Source: Escherichia phage myPSH2311. Taken from it: DNA of 64,000 bases. The notes beneath the pieces are model-generated. The model was not told where the DNA came from and did no database searches. It saw only the letters and a program-made list of their open reading frames with translations. The stretch lies in the sequence record MG976803.1; one strand, given 5' to 3'. Shown piece after piece: positions 2,406 through 63,391 of this stretch (positions within the stretch are counted from its first letter, which is position 1; each line of letters begins with the position of its first letter). Made by a program: the position numbers and the translations under genes.

Positions 2406-3353
2406 ATGGCTAATCCAACTTTATTTGTATCGTATGACCAGAATGGTAAAAAACTTTCTTTTGCTAACTGGATTTCTGTTCTGTCCCCTCAGGATACCCC
2501 GTTCGTATCTATGACCGGTAAAGAGTCTATCAACCAGACTATCTTTAGCTGGCAGACCGATGCACTGGCAAGCGTTGACAGTAATAACGCACACGTCGAA
2601 GGCTCTCGTGCTGAAGACGGCGAAATGAAACCGACTGTTATCAAATCTAACGTTAATGGTCCTTTGGACGTGGTAACTGATTGCAGTGTCAAGTCTTGGC
2701 ATATGTCCATGTCCATGGCATTAAGCTATAAAGGCGCTTAGACATGCGTATTGCGTCTGAATGACACCCATGCAGCTCGTAAGACTGGTGCATTCCAGTT
2801 CCTGTGTGCTCACGGTGGTCTGGCTGGTGGCGTTGTTGACAAGACCAAGAATGGTCCTGCTGACCCGGACACTGGTGCAGTAACTGTTAAAGTTGCACAG
2901 AATGCTTCTAACCCGACCACTAACATTGGTTTCGACGAAGCTGATATCTTTGATATGACTCTGCAACTGTATACCGCTGGTTCTGAAGCAGATATCATCA
3001 TGATTAACCCGGCTCATGCTAAGATCTTTGCTGGTCTGCAAGAAAATACTCAGGGTTCACGTAAGCGTATCTTTGAGAACACCAAGCAGTTCATCTACGA
3101 AGTTAACAGCATCACTGACCCGCTGGGCCAGAGCTACAAAATCATCGTTAACCGTTGGATGCCTACCGATGCAGTTTACTTCTTCCGTAGCGCTGACTGG
3201 ACCCAGATGGTTCTACGTGCTCCGAAACGTACTGAACTGGCTAAAGACGGTTCTTACGAGAAGTGGATGATTGAAATGGAAGTTGGTCTGCGTCACCGCA
3301 ACCCGTATGCTTCCGGCGTTCTGTTCACTGCTGCGGGAAAGGTGGCGGCGTAA
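2406..3353 (+). CDS. Major capsid protein, interrupted by an in-frame TAG at 2739-2741
   Basis: ORFs 2406-2741 and 2751-3353 are in the same frame separated only by TAG; strong optimal-codon bias; RBS-like AGGAG upstream of 2406; terminator downstream. Confidence 0.6.
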
Positions 3354-3877
3354 CAGTAGACAGTGTGACTGTTAGCCCTGCGTCTTTAGCAAGCCTAGAG
3401 ACAGGGGCTACTCGGCAGTTCACTGCAAGCGCGGAGAAAAGTGATGGTTCTACCGAAACAACTGGCTTTACTTGGTCAGTGACAGGAGGTGGTTCTATCA
3501 CTCAGTCGGGTTTGTATACTGCCCCGAGTGCGTCTCAATCCACTGATGTATCCATTACTGCAACTTTAGAAGGTGTTTCTGGTACAGCAACCATTTCTGA
3601 AATTGTTGCTCCTACTCCTACTATTGTGAGTCGTGGGCCAATTACAGGTAAAGTAGGTGGTACTACCACTAACTTCAACACCATGTTTACTGTAACTAAT
3701 TCTATTGCTGATGATTACACACTTGTTGTAACTCCCGCAGAAGCTGGTACAATAAGCGCTAATAATTCGTTAAAATTAGATGCTGCTGCAAGTGGCGAAG
3801 TTACTGTTCAAGCAAGTTTGACAGCTGACCCGTCCATCAATGCAACATGCACTTTTACTGGTGTAACACCTGCTTAA
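3275..3877 (+). CDS. Ig-like (Big_2-type) domain ORF in -1 frame; probable C-terminal extension of capsid (long form) or decoration protein
   Basis: Translation has Big_2-like pattern (ATRQFTASAEK...TWSVTGGGSITQSGLYTAPSASQSTDVSITATLEGVSG); only start is GTG at 3365; overlaps capsid 3' end. Confidence 0.5.
   Translation, partial: NGSWSASPQPVCFRRSVHCCGKGGGVTVDSVTVSPASLASLETGATRQFTASAEKSDGSTETTGFTWSVTGGGSITQSGLYTAPSASQSTDVSITATLEGVSGTATISEIVAPTPTIVSRGPITGKVGGTTTNFNTMFTVTNSIADDYTLVVTPAEAGTISANNSLKLDAAASGEVTVQASLTADPSINATCTFTGVTPA
3335..3341 (+). other. Candidate programmed -1 ribosomal frameshift slippery heptamer G_GGA_AAG near capsid 3' end
   Basis: GGGAAAG in X_XXY_YYZ register relative to capsid frame, 10 nt before capsid TAA; -1 frame is open from 3275 into Ig-like ORF. 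Confidence 0.5.
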
Positions 3878-3884
3878 AAACTAG

Positions 3885-3912
3885 ACCCTGCCTTCGGGCG
3901 GGGTTTTTTTCG
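3885..3912 (+). terminator. Rho-independent terminator after capsid module
   Basis: ACCCTGCC-TTCG-GGCGGGGT stem-loop followed by T7 run. Confidence 0.7.
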
Positions 3913-3980
3913 TTTTAAGACCTATACAAGCTAGTGTGTAATGTATATTCTTTGTCTACATACAACAAGGAGGACAACCT

Positions 3981-4733
3981 ATGGCGATGCCAGATGTGGC
4001 CTATCCGATTAACACGTATGGCTGGCTTAAGAAAGCTGTTGCCTTGTGGGCCGATCGGGACGATGACGAATTTGTTAATCAAATTCCAAACTTTATTAAC
4101 TTTGCAGAGAAAGAGGTTTATCGTAACTTACGTATTCCTCCTCTGGAAAAAGAAGTGTATTTAGATATTAAAGATGGAGTGGCTTATATTCCTCCTGATT
4201 ACTTAGAAGCTCAATGGATGATGAGATCCAAAGATGGTACAATCTTCCAAGTAACATCTCCTGAGGAGATAAGCTATCGGAGACAGCACGGGGCTATTAA
4301 CTCTTCACATTGGAATAACCAACCTGTTAATTTTGCACGGTTTGGAGCACGTTTCTTATTCTATCCTAGAATAAATGCAGATGTTCCGCATTACCCTGAT
4401 GATGGTAGTCCGATTGTTCCAGCGGAGAGTTCGGTAATCTTGAGTTATTATGCAGATCCTCCAGAATTTCACGAAGATGGTGATACAAGTGCGATTCTTA
4501 CCATTGCACCAGAGCTTCTTTTATATTTTACTCTGAGGCATGCATGTTTATTTGTTCAAGATGATAATGGGGTTCAAAAGTGGTCTGCTTTAGGTAAGGC
4601 TATTCTTGACGAGCTAGTAGAACAGAATAAGAAACAAGAGTACTCAGGTTCACCTATTGCAATTCCGAATAACATGACTCGACTTCAGAGCAGCCTGCCT
4701 GATATTTATGGTATTCGTACTTCTCGTCTATAA
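3981..4733 (+). CDS. Virion structural protein (possible head-tail adaptor or tail protein)
   Basis: 250-aa ORF with AAGGAGGA RBS; position between capsid and tail fibre. Confidence 0.35.
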   Translation: MAMPDVAYPINTYGWLKKAVALWADRDDDEFVNQIPNFINFAEKEVYRNLRIPPLEKEVYLDIKDGVAYIPPDYLEAQWMMRSKDGTIFQVTSPEEISYRRQHGAINSSHWNNQPVNFARFGARFLFYPRINADVPHYPDDGSPIVPAESSVILSYYADPPEFHEDGDTSAILTIAPELLLYFTLRHACLFVQDDNGVQKWSALGKAILDELVEQNKKQEYSGSPIAIPNNMTRLQSSLPDIYGIRTSRL

Positions 4734-4742
4734 GGAGATAAT

Positions 4743-7733
4743 ATGATCGTTTATAACAACCAAGCACCTAAGAATGTTAACAATGTAGGACAATTTGGAG
4801 CTACTGAGGGAACTATTGGTGCTTATAAATCAGCAGCTGAATATGCAGCAGACTCTAAATATTGGGCATTGTTGTCCCAAACTAAATACTCCTCAGTAGA
4901 GGAGATTTTGGCTGAAGTAGAACGTCTGTATGCTCAAGGTCATCTACTGGAAGAAGACATTAAACAACTCAAGAGTGACTTTGAGTCACAAGAACAAGTG
5001 CTCTTAGGTTTGATTCAATCCACAGGAACTGCAATTGACAACACCAATGCAGCAACTGAGCTTTCAAAAGAGGCAACTCAAAACGTTCTAGCACAACTTG
5101 ACATTATCTCTAACATGACAGTTCAAACAACGCTTCTTCCTCCGGGAAGCCTAGCTACGGGGTCTTATGATAATGCAACAGGTGTCTTTGCTTTTGGTAT
5201 TCCAGAAGGTAAACCGGGGCGTGATGGTACTGACGGAACAATCGGTGATATTGGAAGCGTTCCTGTTGGTACCCCTGTTGTTGATGACTATGGTTTCTAT
5301 GTAGATAAAGATGATGGTGGTTTATACCGAGCTGACATGTCAGATATTGCCAACTTGATTCCATCTGTTCGATCTGTTTCAATCAATGGCGGCGCTGAAC
5401 AAACAGGTTCAGTGGTTTTTGATTCTGTCTCCACATTCAATGGACGTAAGGGTGCTGTAGTTCCTGCTACTGGAGACTACACAGCTGCTCAAGTGGGAGC
5501 TTTTAGTGTAACTAATAACCTATCCGAAATAACCGACACAAGTGCAGCTATTACAAATATTGGACTCGCTGAGCATGGGATTGGTAGCCCTACCTTAACC
5601 AAAGTGAAGGCTATGGACTGGCAAACATTTAATTTTGTCAATGGAGGTAACTATTCAGTATTAATGTCGAATATTACAAATGCCCCTGCTGAGATAAATT
5701 ATCCTGCCAATTATGGGTTATATCTTGAAGTCATTGGCGTAGTTACAGGAGGAGGTGAGGTACGAGTGGTGCCAATTGCATTGGGAATCCTCTCAATGGC
5801 ATATTTTCCGCTTGGCCAATGCGCTTATGCCGTGGCAAATGTGCCACAACTGCTGCATTGTGTGTAGCATCGCCAGCTTAGCGCTGCATCAATTGTACCT
5901 ATTACCAAAGGTGGTACAGGAGCTACTTCATCAGAGAATGCTCGACTAGCTCTAGTTGCAGCTAAGAGTGGTGATAACTCTGATATCACCTCGATGACCA
6001 ACAAGGTTACTTTCACACAATCTCCAGTAATTCCTGATGCTGTAGATGATAATGACGCGGTTGCTTTGAGACAGTTGCATACAAGTGAAGCAGATTTGCT
6101 GGCAAGGCTGAAAAGTAGTAATGCAGGTGAAGGTGCATCCCTTATTACCTTTGAAAATGGTAATTCTGTTGAGAGTCTTTCCAGTAAAGATGGGGCTAAA
6201 AACATTGGCAGTGGTGAGAGAAGTTTGCTTGTCCGTAACAACGACATTAAGCATTCAGGAGATTTCCCTACCTTACAAGCTGCGGTAAATGCATCGTTAC
6301 CAAAAAACGACTTAATTGTTTCCCCCGGTGAATACAGTGAAGCGATTACTATTGGTAGTACACAGTTAAAGGGTGTTGGTGGAGCCACGGTACTGAAAGC
6401 TCCGTCAAACTTTACAGACACTATTCAGGTTAAGGCATCTACGCCTCATTGGCAATTCCGCCATAGTGGTGGTTTTGCTATAGATGGTTCTGGGACAACC
6501 GGGGCTGTAGGTATTAGTTTTGACCCGACCGACCAATATGCTGGTCGTCACAACTTTAGTGACGTATACATCCATAACATTAACAAGGCCATTCAGAAAC
6601 CTTCCGGGAATATAGGTAATACATGGAAAGGCATTGGCGTGCAAGGTTGTGACTGGGGTTACTGGGCACAGTCTGCTTCTGAGATGCACTTAGGCTCTGA
6701 CACCCTTCAGAACATGCACTTTGATGGTATTAGCACTTACTGTGTTTACTTGAACGCTACAACAGGAGAAGCGCCTGGTACATTCGGAGGTGGTGTAGGC
6801 GGCTGGTGGATTAAAGATAGTATTATGGAAGCCTCTGGCGGTGGTGGTATTTACCTCAAGAACAAGGATGGTGACTGCCCTACTGCCCCATGTGGTGTAT
6901 CCAATGTATGGATGGAAGCTATCGCTACTACTCCAGCTATTAATGTAGATGGTGTATCTCAGAAGCCTCGTGTCCTTAAACTTATTGATACCAGTATCTT
7001 CTTTGCAGAGTACACATACCTTAATAACGTAGAGCTTCAGAACTCCAACCTTGTTACTTATGGCTGCCGAGTAGATAATTCAGATGGCCACATGGATATC
7101 TCTGTAGATGCCAACAGCAGTTTTGTGGCTGATCAATTGTACCTGAATGGTAGCTCCGGCAAAGATGTAATGGTACGTTCTGTAGCGGCTCAGACAGGCA
7201 AGATTGGGCAAAGCTGGTCACCTAATATGAGTATGCGTGGATACCTGCCGGAAGGATACATCTATCGTGTACCTGGTAATAAGCTGGTAGCTAAACCCTT
7301 CGATGGAGGTACTGCTGAATTTAGTGGTACGGCAAGCAGCACTGGGAGTTTGCAGCCACAAGGCCAGTTATCTCAGAGCTGCATGTACTTCGAAATCCCT
7401 GGTGCTGCTGAGTATGAGCTTACTGGTGCTGCATTTCAGATAACTTCCGGTAACTGGTATGTATGGGGCATTAGCACTGAACTGGTACAGGGAACCCCTA
7501 CAAACTTCCGCATCGGTGGAGATATCAATGTAGGTGAAGTATTTACTAAGGGGGGCCAGTGGGTGAGTACCTTTGGTGTAGCTCAGGCTAGTGCTTCCGG
7601 TTCAGTGAACCTGCGCCTAAGTACAGCCGGTACAGGCGGAGTAGTCCTACGCCTCGCTGATTACTTCGTAGCGGAGTTCACTACTCAGGCAGAGGCTATG
7701 CGCTTCGCTAATAGTAGACGTGCCCTGCGTTAA
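4743..7733 (+). CDS. Tail fibre/tailspike protein with in-frame TAG at 5865-5867; C-terminal part resembles a beta-helix depolymerase domain
   Basis: ORFs 4743-5867 and 5994-7733 share one frame; between TAG and first ATG there is no stop and no ATG/GTG/TTG, yet it encodes a tail-fibre-like PITKGGTGATSSENARLAL motif. Confidence 0.5.
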
Positions 7734-7777: not shown

Positions 7778-7959
7778 AGCTTCCATAGGGTAGTTGTTTT
7801 CCCTGATGTAGTGGAATTTATCGGAGACAATGAGCTGGCTGCTTTGTTGCATTCTGATAAATAGTTCATAACTCCCCTTCGAGGTCTTTAGTAGTAAGTA
7901 CCTTTAGTAAGTAATGAAACTAATATATCCCAAGAGGTTAATACATAGGAGACAGATAA

Positions 7960-8178
7960 ATGAAAATGATGAAACAAGCTGCATATGGTTTAATATGCTT
8001 AGGCGCAGGTGTTGTGGTATCCACCGCAGTTCCTGTAGGCGCAGTTCATCCATTAGTTACAGCACCTTCTCCAGTAGAGAAGCTTAGCTCTCAATGTAAA
8101 CAGAGAACAATTCAAAATAACCTAGTTGTTATTTGTCCTGATGCTGAATCTAACGCTCTGAGAAAGATACTACCTTAA
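7960..8178 (+). CDS. Small membrane protein, possible holin
   Basis: 72 aa, N-terminal hydrophobic segment (AAYGLICLGAGVVVSTAVPV), immediately upstream of lysozyme. Confidence 0.3.
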   Translation: MKMMKQAAYGLICLGAGVVVSTAVPVGAVHPLVTAPSPVEKLSSQCKQRTIQNNLVVICPDAESNALRKILP

Positions 8179-8207
8179 TTTAAAGGGACCACAAAAGGAG
8201 GTTAGAA

Positions 8208-8699
8208 ATGGATAACGCCGCATTGCCACCTGTACAATTAAACTTAAGCCCAGCTGGAATGGAATTCATTATGAAGCATGAAGGTATGAGAACCAAGGCT
8301 TATAAAGATTCCGCAGGCATCTGGACGATATGTGTAGGGGCTACGCGCGATATGAATGGTTATCCGGTTAGACAAGGATTAACGTATTCTATAGAGGATT
8401 GTCTAGCTCTGCTAGATAGAGACACACAAGACTCTGTTCGTGCTACTCAGAAGAACATAAAAGTTCCTTTACTAGTTCATGAGTTTGATGCACTCACTTC
8501 TTTCAATTTTAATGTTGGAAGTGGTGCTTTGAGCACATCTAAGTTAAGGAAGGTTATCAATGGAGATGTTAAAGGGGATATTTATTCCGAATTTCTTCGT
8601 TGGGATAAGATAACGGTCAAGGGAGTGAAGCAGAGAAGTCAGGGTCTTCATAACAGAAGGGTTGCAGAAGCTGATCTTTATACCGAAGGTAAATATTAA
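8208..8699 (+). CDS. Lysozyme/endolysin (glycoside hydrolase family 24, T4/lambda-R type)
   Basis: HEGMRTKAYKDSAGIWTICVGAT catalytic-region signature; AAGGAGG RBS. Confidence 0.8.
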   Translation: MDNAALPPVQLNLSPAGMEFIMKHEGMRTKAYKDSAGIWTICVGATRDMNGYPVRQGLTYSIEDCLALLDRDTQDSVRATQKNIKVPLLVHEFDALTSFNFNVGSGALSTSKLRKVINGDVKGDIYSEFLRWDKITVKGVKQRSQGLHNRRVAEADLYTEGKY

Positions 8700-8711
8700 T
8701 GGAGGTGCCTC

Positions 8712-9515
8712 TTGGCTATTGAAACTAATGCGGTAGTAGTTACCGACTTAAACCCACTCTATCCTCGTGATAGAGATTATATCTATGAAGGTGCAGCCCA
8801 GCTGCGCCTAGTTAAGCAAGTATTACAGAACACATTCCCCAACTTAACTGAGCCTATGACTGTAAACTCTGACACACTAGCTGCTATCTCTGACAAGATC
8901 TCTTTTGCTGGTGACTATATGGATGTTGGTGGTTTGATGATTAAGAATGGTACAGCAGGTACTGGTAATAACGACTTTACCACCAAAGCCCAAATGGAAT
9001 CTTTTATGCTCAACTGGATGCAGAATAAGATTTACAGGGTTGGGTCTTATTACATCACTGAGGAAGATATTAACCCGGGAGATTCTACATCTTTAGGGTT
9101 TGGTATCTGGACACAAGTTACTGGTGTTATCATGGGTGCTGGGGTTGTGAACCCTGATGGGACAGTCCCTAATGCTCAGCGTGTGGAGTTTACTGCTGGT
9201 GCTACAGGTGGTCGTGTTTACAACACAGTTAAGACAGAGAACCTGCCATTGACTACAATCTCTGGTTCAAGTTTTTCTCTTTCTAACTATACACACTCAC
9301 ACACTACATCATTTGGACGTGGAGATGCAAGTGGACATAACAGCTCACCTAACTGGTATAATCCGGGGGTTAGTTATTCTGTTGCATCAAGTTCTGATAC
9401 TCACACCCACACCATTACAGGTGATGCAACATTTGGCTATGATGATGTATCTCGTCAACCTATAAATACGTTACCACCCTTCCGTGCAGCATATATCTGG
9501 AGACGTATCAGTTAA
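8712..9515 (+). CDS. Tail fibre-like structural protein
   Basis: 267 aa, G/T/S-rich C-terminus with HxH repeats; structural operon context. Confidence 0.35.
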   Translation: MAIETNAVVVTDLNPLYPRDRDYIYEGAAQLRLVKQVLQNTFPNLTEPMTVNSDTLAAISDKISFAGDYMDVGGLMIKNGTAGTGNNDFTTKAQMESFMLNWMQNKIYRVGSYYITEEDINPGDSTSLGFGIWTQVTGVIMGAGVVNPDGTVPNAQRVEFTAGATGGRVYNTVKTENLPLTTISGSSFSLSNYTHSHTTSFGRGDASGHNSSPNWYNPGVSYSVASSSDTHTHTITGDATFGYDDVSRQPINTLPPFRAAYIWRRIS

Positions 9516-58487: not shown

Positions 58488-58513
58488 AAAAAAGCCCCAG
58501 CCGTAGCCGGGGC
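58488..58513 (-). terminator. Rho-independent terminator (second of two tandem hairpins; the other at 58580-58606)
   Basis: Minus-strand GCCCCGGC-UACG-GCUGGGGC followed by U6. Confidence 0.6.
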
Positions 58514-58824
58514 AAACCTGAAAGCAACACATGACCGTTGCTATAAATACACTCGCAAATGCACTTACAGCAACGCAAAAAGCCGCTCAAAGGCGGCTAT
58601 GCGGAAGCTTCAAATGGGGAGAGGGCACGACGCGACAGAAAGAGCGTCATAGTACTAAAAAGAGAGGCTATTGGAGAGGTTACTTATTGCCTTCCTTAAT
58701 GCCTTGTTTTCTTGTTTAACCAATTCGTTTTCTTCTTGCAAGGATGCTACCAGATGGACCAGAACATCAACTACTGCATCACCTTGCCGCATCTCTCTGA
58801 CTTTATTTAGAATCTCTGAATAAA

Positions 58825-59688: not shown

Positions 59689-59944
59689 TTTCTCAATCCC
59701 AACTTTCTTAAGATACGGCCTAACGTTGTTTCTTGCGTGATAATATAGCTGATTGCTTCACGTTCCAATGTTTCAATCTTCATTGGTGACGGATACCATT
59801 CACCGGTAATAACACATTTACATTCAACGCCATACTTTTTAGATAGGCGGTAATGTTGACCGTTGACAAGATTCCTATAGATCGTGGTATGTGTAATTAA
59901 CATGATCGTCACCTTTGATTAGATTCTTTGATTAATGCACTGAA

Positions 59945-59979
59945 TCAATGCACTGATAAAAGAAAAGGCGCTACCCGTT
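59945..59979 (-). terminator. Rho-independent terminator
   Basis: Minus-strand GGCGCUA-loop-UAGCGCC followed by UUUUCUUUU. Confidence 0.55.
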
Positions 59980-60014
59980 AAGATAGCGCCTTATGTTTAT
60001 TTAAATTGTCTTAC

Positions 60015-61242
60015 TTATGCCGCTTGACGTGCCGCCATAATCTCAGCCGCTTTGCGCAGTACTTCTTCCTCTTCTGCTTTCGCCGCTTGTTCACTACGGA
60101 TTGCAACCGTTGAAGAGATACGACCGCGCAGGTTATCTAATTTTTCCTGCATTTTGGCAATGGTGGATTCCATTTCATCAGCGTATGAATCGAGTGATTC
60201 TAATTCCTTGCTTGATGCGTTCATCAGATAATCATCCGAGATCGCTACCGTTGAGGCCGTGACTTTCTTGATGAGTGAATCAAAGGACTTTTTAACCTTC
60301 CCAACTTCTTCACTCAGGGCGATAGTGTTATCGCTAGTTGCGCCGTTGCGCTCATCAGCCAGTAATTTGGCTTCAATACGGATTGCATTCAAACGTTCGA
60401 CTAAAGCGTAAATATCTTGGTTAAAATCTTCCTTGTTTTTCGCCGGTATTTGCAGGTGTGCCACTACGTTGTCATTGCAACCCTTGTAAAAGTTAGGATT
60501 ATCGACTTCAATTTCACGACCTAGTGCAAAATTTTCGAAAGCATTTGACCAGCGAGCGCGGTTTAGTACCATTTTGGATTTAATTTGCGCTACTTTCGCA
60601 TCTTCTTTAGCTTTCGCCTCACCTTCCAGAATAAACCACTATTTACGAACATATGCGTCCCGTGTACCCGTCGTTTACTTGACTGGCTTTGTCATGCGTA
60701 TTTTGTCGTACGTGACTGTTTTCGTACGTTGCGTGCATGCGTTTTGTCAAAATGTTTTTCGCCGGTATTTGCAGGTGTGCCACTACGTTGTCATTGCAAC
60801 CCTTGTAAAAGTTAGGATTATCGACTTCAATTTCACGACCTAGTGCAAAATTTTCGAAAGCATTTGACCAGCGAGCGCGGTTTTGTTCCATTTTGGTTTT
60901 AATTTGCGCTTCTTTCGCATCTTCTTTAGCTTTCGCCTCACCTTCCAGATTAATCCACTTTTTACGACCATTTGCCGCATCGGTGTTAAACTTGATAGGA
61001 GTTAAGAAAGTAATTGCGGTAGCGATAACATCCATATCACGGAAACGTTCAGTTAACAGGAAGTCAACCGCCGCCTGCAATACATCTAACTTCTTACCGT
61101 TGCTACGAAAGTGCTGCAAATGCCCTAACAGGAAGTTAGAAACATCTTGTTTGATCGCCGCGTTATTACTGCGAATGTTGTTAGCCAGAGCATTAAAACC
61201 GGATTCGTTAACCAGAGTAAAGATTTTAGCCATAATATTCAC
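60015..61242 (-). CDS. Hypothetical protein, interrupted by 102-bp insert and 217-bp duplicated segment
   Basis: ORFs 60643-61242 and 60015-60572 share a duplicated RARWSNAFENFALGREIEVDNPNFYKGCNDNVVAHLQIPAKN segment. Confidence 0.4.
60651..60752. other. Insert flanked by 217-bp direct repeats (60434-60650 and 60753-60969) that differ at 8 positions
   Basis: Base-by-base comparison of the two copies. Confidence 0.6.
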
Positions 61243-63019
61243 CTTTCAATTGTAAGGGCGCTATTGCCCCGCTCTCTATGAGCTTGTTTAAGTCACTATT
61301 AACTTAACTATAACCACTCGTTGTTAAGTAGTTATAGGTAAGCGGGGCGGTCTTATCAGGAGTTAACCTTGCCGCCCCCTTATCCGTGATGTTTCATCTG
61401 GTATCTTTAATTAGTCGCTATAAACGAAGCCGACCTGATAGCGATGATCAATCATCACAATAAGGCTATGCGTCCGACTCTATTTAATTACATTGCTGTA
61501 ACCGTCGGCAATATCGTCTACTTTGTTTTCGCTCCCGCTTATCCTTTTGTATCAGCTCTCTATCGCTAGTCATCGCCCACTACGGGATACTATTGCGAAA
61601 GAGTCACTAACCGCCTAATATTCCGGCGTTTTATATCTTTCAGCAGGTTTACTACATAACCCGGCTATGTACTTTCATCCTATGATGAATCTCAAGCCGT
61701 TCACATCGTAAACGTTCGCATTAAACCTTATTGTTAAATAGCAATTTGCCACTTTTTAACCACTCCCCGCCGCTCTCAATTGAGCGTTAATTCGTCGGAC
61801 TTGCCTACCCTGATTAACTTCTTTCACTGTAGCACCGTGTTAGCAATGACCGCCGCTACCCTTAACCGTGGGCGATTAGCTCAAGTCTTTGCGTGTACTC
61901 AATGAATCCGTTTATCAATGGTGACGTTTCCAGTAAGGGAATGTAAAACTGTTTACCCTGATAATTTAGGGAGTTTTACGCCGTTTTATCTGGTATGCTT
62001 TCCGATGGTTATTATCATCAAGCATATTCAACCGATATAGGAGAATGTTTAAATTATTAAAGAGCGGTAAATCTATCAGTGTGCTTTCTCACACTATGCA
62101 ACTGTTAGCCGTTGTTACGCTTTTCACTGAAGCGATGATTTGCTTAGTGAGTGCTCATTATGAATCATGTTGTTTTCGCTGTCAACCGCTTTTTAATCTT
62201 TTTTCGTCGTTCCCGCTATTGGGAGGATATATCAATCAGCTTTGTTTGATTGAAGATTAAGCGGTGAGGCTTAACTTATGATTCATATTGTTAAAGAGCG
62301 TTTTTAGCCTTTTATAGTGTCTGCTAATCACTGCATCATTGAAGGCTTACTGATTCATTAACAGGACGCCTAACCCTGAACTACTCGCTGCACTATGTGC
62401 CACCTTTCCCGCGATACGTTGATTTGGGAACTTGTTAGCGGTGTATCTGCTAACTTGTGGTTAGTATGGACTACTTTAACCACGTTTGCAACTCTTTTTA
62501 TCATCTTCTTTTAATTCCTTTCCCTTATCTCGCGTGAATCTATGCGAAAGGGCAAGATGATAAGTTTTTAAAGAGCGGGATTTTTTAAGTCATCGCTGAC
62601 TATGCTCACTATATGTCAGGCTGTTTTCGGTGTCAATACTCTTTTTGAGAATATTTTCACTTTCTAGCCTGATTTTTAAAGAGCGGGGCAATTTCTTGCC
62701 TTGTATGTTTTACATCGTACCCGATGAAATGAAGTATACGCTAATCAGATGAGGTTGCAATAGGGTAAAGCAAATTATTTTAAACTTTTTCACTATAGGA
62801 AGGTAAAAGAGCAGGCGCACGCGATACATCATAGAAAATGGCTTGTAAAGCGATATTTAGCGGCCTAAAACGCATCACAACGAGCTAAAAGGGAGTAAGG
62901 CATACAATCACCTCATAAAAGAGAAAAGCCTCACTAGGAGGCTTACAGGAAGGATTAGAGAATCAGATAAATTATGACCATAGGCATGACTACGGCACAA
63001 TACAGGAGAAAGATTAAGC
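61243..63019. promoter_or_regulatory. Long non-coding region with an 83-bp imperfect hairpin (61266-61348) and four direct TTAAAGAGCGG repeats
   Basis: No ORF over 71 aa; motif at 62057, 62291 (last base T), 62568 and 62677. Confidence 0.35.
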
Positions 63020-63391
63020 CTATGGATTTACACATTGACCGTTACCGGATGCCATTTCATTCATGGACTCATCAAAGAGCGTCAACGATGAGCGCATCAA
63101 GTGATCTACCGTGATTTGCTTACCAGTGGTTTCATTTACCAGTTGAATAGTTTTATCGTATGATTGTACATGTTCGAAATCATTCACATGTAAAATAATA
63201 ACTTTAGGTGACTTTTTACCAGTTTCGTAATTCTCTACGAGATAGGTACACTGTAAACCGTCAACCGTATCAGGGGAGAATGTTGCAGCCTTTACACTAC
63301 CCATATCCGATAGCAGGACACCTAACAGGAGAACAACCAGAAAGAAGCCTACAACCGTTTTAACGACGAATTTAATAAACCACATAGCCAA
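63020..63391 (-). CDS. Membrane protein (N-terminal transmembrane segment)
   Basis: 123 aa; hydrophobic stretch VVGFFLVVLLLGVLL near N-terminus. Confidence 0.35.
   Translation of the reverse strand: MAMWFIKFVVKTVVGFFLVVLLLGVLLSDMGSVKAATFSPDTVDGLQCTYLVENYETGKKSPKVIILHVNDFEHVQSYDKTIQLVNETTGKQITVDHLMRSSLTLFDESMNEMASGNGQCVNP

Follow-up and report, generated by a model that had tools for sequence, protein, structure and literature searches.

A likely rRNA-operon-like control region of early transcription, with four boxA elements and a conserved structured RNA, in Escherichia phage myPSH2311

boxA elements in described systems and in the gap of phage myPSH2311

Anti-termination at boxA elements is known from the early regions of phages lambda and T7, and boxA is also an RNA signal of the ribosomal RNA (rRNA) operons (rrn) of Escherichia coli. 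Here we analyzed a 1,777-bp gap between two genes (positions 61243-63019) in a 64,000-nucleotide stretch of Escherichia phage myPSH2311 (MG976803.1), the whole of which is referred to below as the window. Judging from its sequence, the gap is likely to be a minus-strand control region of early transcription that is organized like an rRNA operon, with promoters for the host RNA polymerase, four boxA elements and a structured RNA ahead of the early genes. With respect to the boxA systems of lambda and T7, it is a multi-copy variant in the rrn order. This view is supported by the strand and motif identity of the repeats in the gap, the conservation of the promoters, the enrichment of hairpins 5' of boxA, a covarying RNA and the lack of conserved open reading frames (ORFs).

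For the comparison with described systems, the reference boxA elements of rrnB, T7 and lambda were checked in sequence. The rrn operons share with the gap the succession of a strong promoter, a hairpin, boxA and a long untranslated structured RNA, the first long-range helix of which follows right after boxA. In the rrnB leader the hairpin is followed by TGCTCTTTAACAA, whose core GCUCUUUAA is identical here, and in some relatives the match is longer, such as in phage SU7 (CGCTCTTTAACAATTTATCG compared to TGCTCTTTAACAATTTATCA in rrnB). The gap differs from the rrn operons in that boxC is not conserved, boxA mostly begins with C in place of U (C also being the first base in lambda and T7), no sequence of E. 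coli resembles the RNA, and protein genes follow instead of genes for transfer RNA (tRNA) and 23S rRNA. In T7, as in the gap, tandem strong host promoters near one genome end precede a boxA on the same strand, a structured RNA and the first early gene. The T7 layout comprises the promoters A1-A3, the boxA CGCTCTTTAACAA (812-824) between A3 (750) and gene 0.3 (925), and the RNase III site R0.3; this 13-mer is identical to boxA copy 2 of the gap. The T7 boxA downstream of the A promoters is genetically a functional anti-termination element (PMC3709561). However, in T7 a single boxA follows three promoters and the leader measures ~175 nt from the A3 start to gene 0.3, whereas the gap has four boxA copies, each with its own 5' hairpin and interleaved with promoters, and, between the last boxA and the first gene, a conserved structured RNA of ~0.8 kb. 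Lambda likewise carries boxA in the early transcript just downstream of an early promoter, and host Nus factors are expected to take part; in nutL, CGCTCTTAAAAA is followed by the boxB hairpin, an order that is reversed in the gap, where the hairpin is moreover not conserved in sequence. Finally, the boxA elements of clustered regularly interspaced short palindromic repeat (CRISPR) arrays and of the suhB leader have the same consensus (PMC5725501), and boxA upstream of CRISPR arrays shields an unusually long untranslated RNA from Rho (PMC7665894). Those are single chromosomal copies, whereas the gap holds four in a virulent phage, paired with consensus promoters.

Based on these parallels, we propose that host σ70 RNA polymerase would start at the predicted promoters P4, P3 and P1 (Table 1), and that each transcript would present, within its first ~25-95 nt, a short hairpin and then boxA (CGCUCUUUAANA). 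By analogy with E. coli, boxA would bind NusB-S10 and form, together with NusA, NusG and SuhB, a Rho-resistant anti-termination complex (PMC5725501, PMC7665894, PMC8632103). Such a complex could carry the polymerase over ~0.8-1.5 kb of untranslated RNA into the early genes and past a conserved terminator behind the first of them; protection from Rho would be needed because the transcript is untranslated over this distance. The most economical interpretation is that the RNA is made like rRNA, with boxA serving for Rho protection and perhaps for the co-transcriptional folding of long-range helices. A virulent coliphage that seemingly borrows the host rRNA anti-termination signal four times would offer a test bed for boxA outside rRNA operons, with regard to Rho protection, speed and co-transcriptional folding.

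The window belongs to a Kuravirus (ES17/myPSH1131, phiEco32-like), and its gap is 100% identical to those of ES17 and myPSH1131. The gap was found in 97 phage records at 74-100% identity, all of them E. coli or Shigella phages of the Gordonclarkvirinae (genera Kuravirus, Suseptimavirus and Nieuwekanaalvirus). Its counterpart in phiEco32 is flanked by genes 124 and 125 and is located ~2.8 kb away from the right end of the genome. The flanking genes are both on the minus strand, and so are all signals of the gap. Distant-mode blastn and tblastn with the neighbouring gene returned the same 97 records and nothing beyond, and a protein-guided locus search of IMG/VR returned known phages only. When IMG/VR, metagenomes and GTDB genomes were scanned for motifs and then searched with nhmmer, only close relatives came up, all but one of them full-length, the remaining motif matches being due to chance; neither the region nor its RNA had a match in 5,426 E. 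coli genomes. About 100 sequenced Gordonclarkvirinae, several of which are therapy candidates such as ES17, carry a putative switchboard of early transcription that is either unannotated or filled with spurious tiny ORFs.

Promoters, boxA copies and hairpins of the gap

Four direct repeats in one orientation had been noted in the gap by the original prediction, and they are indeed present (TTAAAGAGCG at 62057, 62291, 62568 and 62676), except that copy 4 does not start at 62677 and copy 2 ends in GCGT, without the final G. That earlier reading overlooked the minus strand, the strand of the flanking genes, as the meaningful one for these repeats. Read on the minus strand, the "TTAAAGAGCGG" repeats become CGCUCUUUAA(N)A, with CGCUCUUUAA followed by UA, CA, AA and AA in the four copies. 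The minus strand matches CGCTCTTTAA four times in 64 kb where 0.11 matches are expected, and none of 100 shuffles reached four. Moreover, all four repeats fit the gamma-proteobacterial boxA consensus GYTCTTTAANA (as RNA, GYUCUUUAANA; PMC5725501) perfectly; these matches are all on the minus strand within 62055-62684, compared to 0.53 expected in 64 kb. A fifth boxA-like copy with one mismatch, which had also been overlooked, is invariant (TGCTATTTAACAAT, 61744-61731). It deviates at consensus position 4, one of the two positions altered in a boxA mutant that does not associate with SuhB (PMC5725501).

Among 18 relatives, each genome has 3-5 boxA copies, and all 74 copies are in the sense orientation, none in antisense, at +13 to +148 from the approximate transcription start. 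In its right half, the gap is composed of modules in mosaic arrangement, each made of a promoter, a variable hairpin and boxA, that are shuffled between the phages (57-93% identity, many indels) with boxA itself invariant. The repeats are irregularly spaced (234, 277 and 108 bp), with spacings that differ between phages, and they have no dyad symmetry. A degenerate boxA-like sequence, CUGCUCUUUUACC, was also seen on the minus strand at ~62800-62815, between the upstream terminator and P4, with variants in IME267, O18-011, MN05 and LAMP, and could be what is left of an additional module.

These properties bear on the replication origin that the original prediction had offered. In such an origin, an initiator would bind the DNA of the repeats as iterons, unwinding would be eased by hairpins and AT-rich parts, and the strong promoters might provide transcriptional activation or an RNA primer. 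The repeats do lie in a gene-free stretch, in which the GC content falls to 0.36-0.38 around 61900-62300 and 62500-62800. There are origins of phages and plasmids that are preceded by promoters or employ a structured primer RNA (the T7 primary origin, ColE1 RNA II), and a structured transcript alone does not rule out priming. However, the repeat is a perfect boxA that occurs on the sense strand only, within predicted transcripts and downstream of promoters, its spacing is irregular and changes between phages, and what is conserved around it is the RNA hairpin preceding each copy, which varies and is nonetheless kept. There is no initiator-like gene adjacent to the gap, the flanking proteins having no informative family, and no inflection of the GC skew at 61-63 kb: the cumulative skew turns only at ~24 kb in the window and is monotonic through 61-63 kb at 2-kb resolution. 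An origin is thus very unlikely. As for the reversal at ~24000, it coincides with a flip of gene orientation from a plus-strand to a minus-strand block, and the skew tracks the direction of transcription throughout the window.

Promoters were predicted by scoring against the 12 positions of the σ70 consensus, those with at least 10/12 being counted as strong in the 18 phages. There are 2-4 strong promoters per genome, and all 50 of them are on the sense strand (0 antisense). P1 is present in 18 of 18 relatives (with TTGACA or TTGACG), and P3 is its paralogue, the two forming a direct repeat. In spite of its lower score, P4 appears to be a real promoter, because its -35 box (TTGCA; TTGCG in MN05), its -10 box (TATACT) and its A/T tract are kept in 7 phages while the spacer sequence varies. 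Early promoters had been another option of the original prediction, and this one is borne out by the near-consensus promoters on the minus strand and by the SU10 genome paper, which reports three σ70 promoters in this spacer, as in phiEco32, and a terminator after the upstream four-gene operon. The SU10 site homologous to the upstream terminator of the gap is annotated as a terminator, and its stem differs by a compensatory change. In SU7 and EK010, TTGACA-16-TAGAAT is found ~50 nt upstream of boxA copy 2. In the phiEco32-type module, as present in phiEco32, SU10, Paul and EP335 (~4020-4050 of their loci, minus strand), UGUAAAUGUAGUAAC is found directly 5' of boxA 2; its AAUGUA core matches the promoter motif of the phage sigma factor (gp36), and the segment is replaced in the present window. 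Within the gap, inspection by eye showed the gp36 motif AATGTA at non-conserved positions only.

Each boxA tends to be preceded by a hairpin. The 30 nt 5' of boxA have a mean minimum free energy (MFE) of −5.2 kcal/mol compared to a background of −2.5 (p = 3e-11), and the 30 nt 3' of boxA show no enrichment of structure (−2.3 versus −2.5, p = 0.22). When the 40 nt upstream were folded, a hairpin of −5 kcal/mol or better was obtained in 43 of 58 distinct contexts. The stems vary with pairing kept (GUGUG/CACAC, ACGUG/CACGU and GAGGUG/CACCUC at boxA 1).

A hairpin next to boxA is the anatomy of a nut site such as nutL, and the elements might accordingly be read by a phage N-like protein, with a complex that also ignores intrinsic terminators. 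Conserved intrinsic terminators do lie in the path of the transcript, and N-type complexes handle such terminators well (PMC8632103); in addition, the authors of a study on the related phage 7-11 suspected an undefined anti-termination strategy in that phage. On the other hand, the hairpin is located 5' of boxA, which is the rrn order (PMC8632103), and not 3', where structure is at background. The sequences and loops of the hairpins differ between modules and between phages, which counts against a single N-like reader since a conserved boxB would then be expected. An N homolog is not known, the scan having covered the two flanking proteins and no systematic search for N-like proteins having been made; the first downstream gene is unlikely to encode an essential antiterminator, given that it is disrupted in this viable phage. 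A lambda-type nut system in place of the rrn-like arrangement is therefore unlikely, and as an addition to that arrangement it is possible.

Several observations weigh against an rrn-like control region. Copy 2 of boxA has no strong upstream promoter of its own in this phage, and the distantly related phage 7-11 has no boxA within 10 kb at its right end. A GU-rich 8-mer that could represent boxC is found within 50 nt 3' of boxA in only 9 of 74 copies, none of which is in this window. The structured RNA is G-rich relative to C and may for this reason be a poor Rho target anyway. It should also be noted that complexes of the rrn type are far more effective at suppressing Rho-dependent terminators than at suppressing intrinsic ones, so that boxA alone may not explain the passage of the terminator at 59992-59965. 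The mapped start sites of the promoters are known second-hand, via the SU10 genome paper. Finally, the transcripts are predictions, and the binding of Nus factors, the resistance to Rho and any role of the RNA are inferred.

The original prediction had regarded the gap as non-coding, and this view holds. The largest ORF inside 61243-63019 has 71 amino acids (62045-62260, plus strand), none of the seven ORFs of at least 40 amino acids is intact across all 17 relatives tested, and no conserved ORF of at least 30 amino acids was found in the left 0.85 kb. A scan of the window for tRNA and transfer-messenger RNA found none. In GenBank, the gap is unannotated in nearly all records, and a few records fill it with tiny ORFs. 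In those of 101114UKE3 (locus 3091-4761), CHD5UKE1 and EK5, 5-10 hypothetical proteins of 30-50 amino acids tile the gap on both strands; these are probably spurious gene calls, since they overlap covarying RNA helices and are not conserved between phages. Such annotations, of which several GenBank records hold many, and the closeness of the repeats to promoters would suit a further explanation, by which a repressor or shut-off factor of the early promoters would use the repeats as DNA operators and the rest of the gap would consist of decaying or unannotated small genes. This is, however, highly improbable: the distance from promoter to repeat varies over the entire range given above, the repeats are exact boxA elements rather than dyads, no ORF of the gap is conserved across relatives, and substitutions track base-pairing and not codons, with 77 compensatory pairs.

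A conserved structured RNA between boxA 1 and the first gene

The ~0.8 kb of RNA between the last boxA, which it immediately follows, and the ribosome-binding site of the first gene (62053-61255) has a conserved fold. For its analysis, the minus-sense sequences from boxA 1 to the start codon were aligned for 18 phages and folded with RNAalifold, which gave a consensus of 230 pairs in 39 helices. In the alignment, 99.0% of the paired cells can pair, compared to 93.1% in column shuffles (0 of 500 reached the observed value). The 77 pairs with compensatory changes on both sides compare with 31.8±3.4 in the shuffles and with 8-11 when the partners were slid by 1-3 columns. The single-sequence MFE has a z-score of −6.8. 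The helices fit a minus-sense transcript better, since 11% of the cells are G-U pairs: read on the other strand, pairing drops from 99.0% to 88.1%, and the alifold energy is −157 kcal/mol in the plus sense versus −233 kcal/mol in the minus sense.

The fold consists of two domains with long-range closing helices and a 3' row of hairpins (Table 1). The closing helix of domain I begins 2 nt after boxA 1. In rrn operons, tethering of the 5' end at boxA has been proposed to aid the formation of long-range helices (PMC8632103), and we speculate that the same could hold here, where one domain-closing helix follows boxA 1 directly and another follows the boxA-like element. The stretch from boxA to the first gene contains several covarying hairpins and an irregular helix of ~26 bp, in which an RNase III site, as in T7, is possible.

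The original prediction had described a long hairpin of 83 bp at the left end of the gap. Its arms exist at the positions it gave, and the inner arms are a conserved helix (helix 36, 61337-61326 with 61319-61308) with compensatory changes in 6 of 12 pairs. The outer arms (61266-61273 with 61341-61348), however, are not a conserved structure: their pairing of 85.4% equals that of shuffled sequences, none of the pairs changes in a compensatory manner, and 10 of 18 phages are unable to form one of them. Instead, the left outer arm pairs with the upstream G-rich stretch 61378-61372 (helix 34), where pairing is 100% and 5 of 7 pairs show compensatory changes. The region thus resolves into helices 34-39, and the single-sequence MFE fold is a row of five hairpins rather than one hairpin of 83 bp. 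The small RNAs that had been considered were right as to RNA and wrong as to scale, the gap having one large structured RNA with long-range helices and not several small ones. A near-palindrome at 61443-61456, GATGATTGATCATC, is 99% conserved across the 18 phages and is predicted to form a hairpin of 5 bp without covariation (helix 31); it could equally be a protein-binding site on DNA.

With its ~0.8 kb, its many covarying helices, among them long-range ones, its invariant unpaired stretches and its place in a phage genome, the RNA resembles GOLLD, ROOL and OLE. Unlike for these, no covariance match was found in Rfam 15 even at E-values up to 10. The RNA has been found only in Gordonclarkvirinae of E. 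coli and Shigella, and it is a 5' leader of a messenger RNA without a terminator of its own. Across the whole window, no Rfam 15 model (including GOLLD, ROOL, OLE, HEARO, introns and ribozymes) matched at its gathering score, and a permissive Rfam scan of 61150-63100 gave only five matches at chance level (E 1.1-7.8), to eukaryotic small nucleolar RNA, U7 small nuclear RNA and Yersinia small RNA models. The terminator scan found no intrinsic terminator after the RNA, which implies that it is co-transcribed with the first gene. No complementarity between the RNA and the rest of the window exceeded 14 nt, which is the chance level. The identity to ES17 in six Suseptimavirus-type phages amounts to 85-90% for the RNA, compared to 65-77% for the flanking genes. 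A structurally constrained RNA of ~0.8 kb that has no Rfam family and is in some lineages more conserved than the neighbouring genes is rare, and since its phages infect E. coli K-12 derivatives, it resides in a tractable system.

The RNA is apparently undescribed and is absent from Rfam 15. The literature on Kuravirus and Gordonclarkvirinae does not treat the gap beyond the three promoters in the spacer, and no paper was found that links boxA with phiEco32. For these phages, neither boxA nor a structured leader RNA turned up in any description, an earlier mention in the primary phiEco32 papers (Savalia 2008, Pavlova 2012) being possible. Tentatively, the RNA at 62053-61255 might represent a new class of large ornate non-coding phage RNA that is made in the manner of rRNA, from consensus promoters, with repeated boxA elements and with a Nus complex assisting its long-range helices to fold. 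Produced in bulk within the first minutes of infection and possibly excised from the early transcript, such an RNA could act in trans, for instance in counter-defence or host take-over, where a host protein would bind it as a decoy or scaffold.

Table 1. Positions of the features in and next to the gap, in the order of leftward transcription.
Feature	Positions	Strand	Remarks
Intrinsic terminator AAGCCUCCUAGUGAGGCUU + U-tract	62917..62944	-	Terminates the short operon upstream (gp125 homolog, 63020-63391) and delimits the control region on that side; from the terminator scan
P4: A/T-rich tract AAAAAGTTTAAAATAATTT, then TTGCAA-16-TATACT (62760-62733)	62733..62790	-	9/12; inferred start near 62726
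Hairpin GGCAAGAAAUUGCC	62687..62700	-	Immediately 5' of boxA 4, at the position of rrn boxB; GGCAGG...CUUGCC and GGCAAGG...CUUGCC of relatives keep pairing
boxA copy 4: CGCUCUUUAAAA	62674..62685	-	Perfect consensus match; conserved in relatives
P3: TTGACA-17-TATAGT, with an AAAAAG tract just upstream	62608..62636	-	11/12; inferred start near 62601
Hairpin GUCAGCGAUGAC	62589..62600	-	5' of boxA 3; in relatives UUCAGCGAUGAA and GGUCAGCGAUGACC, stem different and pairing kept
boxA copy 3: CGCUCUUUAAAA	62566..62577	-	~+24 from the P3 start
boxA copy 2: CGCUCUUUAACA	62289..62300	-	13-mer CGCUCUUUAACAA identical to the T7 early boxA
P1: TTGACA-17-CATAAT	62157..62185	-	11/12; inferred start near 62150
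Hairpin GUGUGAGAAAGCACAC	62079..62094	-	5' of boxA 1; GAGAAAG loop like that of the rrnB leader hairpin
boxA copy 1: CGCUCUUUAAUA	62055..62066	-	~+84 relative to the P1 start; immediately precedes the structured RNA; invariant in the 18-phage alignment
Domain I of the RNA	61755..62053	-	Long-range closing helix 62053-62040 with 61768-61755; helices 3-16
Invariant hairpin (helix 17) with the one-mismatch boxA-like UGCUAUUUAACAAU (61744-61731)	61731..61754	-	A for C at consensus position 4
Domain II of the RNA	61457..61734	-	Long-range closing helix 61734-61725 with 61466-61457; helices 19-30; follows the invariant boxA-like hairpin
3' hairpin row of the RNA	61255..61456	-	Nine helices (31-39) in eight hairpin units (35 nested in 34); ends just before the ribosome-binding site; MFE z-score −5.5
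Ribosome-binding site (GAAAGG) and ATG of the gp124 homolog	61233..61248	-	First gene of the leftward operon
Conserved intrinsic terminator	59965..59992	-	Just after the gp124 homolog; 12-bp stem and U-tract; the first one met from P4, P3 and P1

Flanking genes and downstream terminators

The flanking proteins have no informative Pfam or PHROG family and no Pfam match above the curated cutoff; of their PHROGs, one is of unknown function and the other is labelled 'terminase'. Implausible names are also given to small ORFs at the right end in RefSeq records (ES17 locus 7778-8853; phiEco32 locus 4936-6124; window 63020-63391), for example 'terminase' for a protein of 121-123 amino acids with a hydrophobic N-terminus and 'polymerase' for proteins of 80-90 amino acids. 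The 'terminase' label is the name of the PHROG family and is without Pfam support.

The gp124 homolog (60015-61235, minus strand) is disrupted by a 319-bp tandem duplication at 60434-60975 (two copies of 223 nt, 96% identical), which splits it into ORFs of 199 and 185 amino acids, compared to a single gene of 299 amino acids in ES17. By tblastn, only the first 146 residues were found in myPSH1131. Either this first early gene is dispensable, or the duplication is an assembly artefact.

Among the 18 relatives, the stem of the terminator behind this gene is essentially invariant, apart from two single changes that each affect one side only. For the genes beyond this terminator, the SU10 paper describes no early promoters other than those of the gap. 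The terminator is either leaky or read through by the boxA complex, possibly with a phage factor. Within the early gene cluster, at 58494-58598 on the minus strand, there are further terminator-like hairpins (GCCCCGGCUACGGCUGGGGC followed by U6 and AGCCGCCUUUGAGCGGCU followed by U5), and early transcription must therefore pass several intrinsic terminators. A conserved stretch, CAGUGCAUUGAUUCAGUG..AAUCAAAGAA, is found after the terminator at 59992-59965 (59913-59992, minus strand); it is annotated as a promoter in SU7 and is unlike the σ70 consensus.

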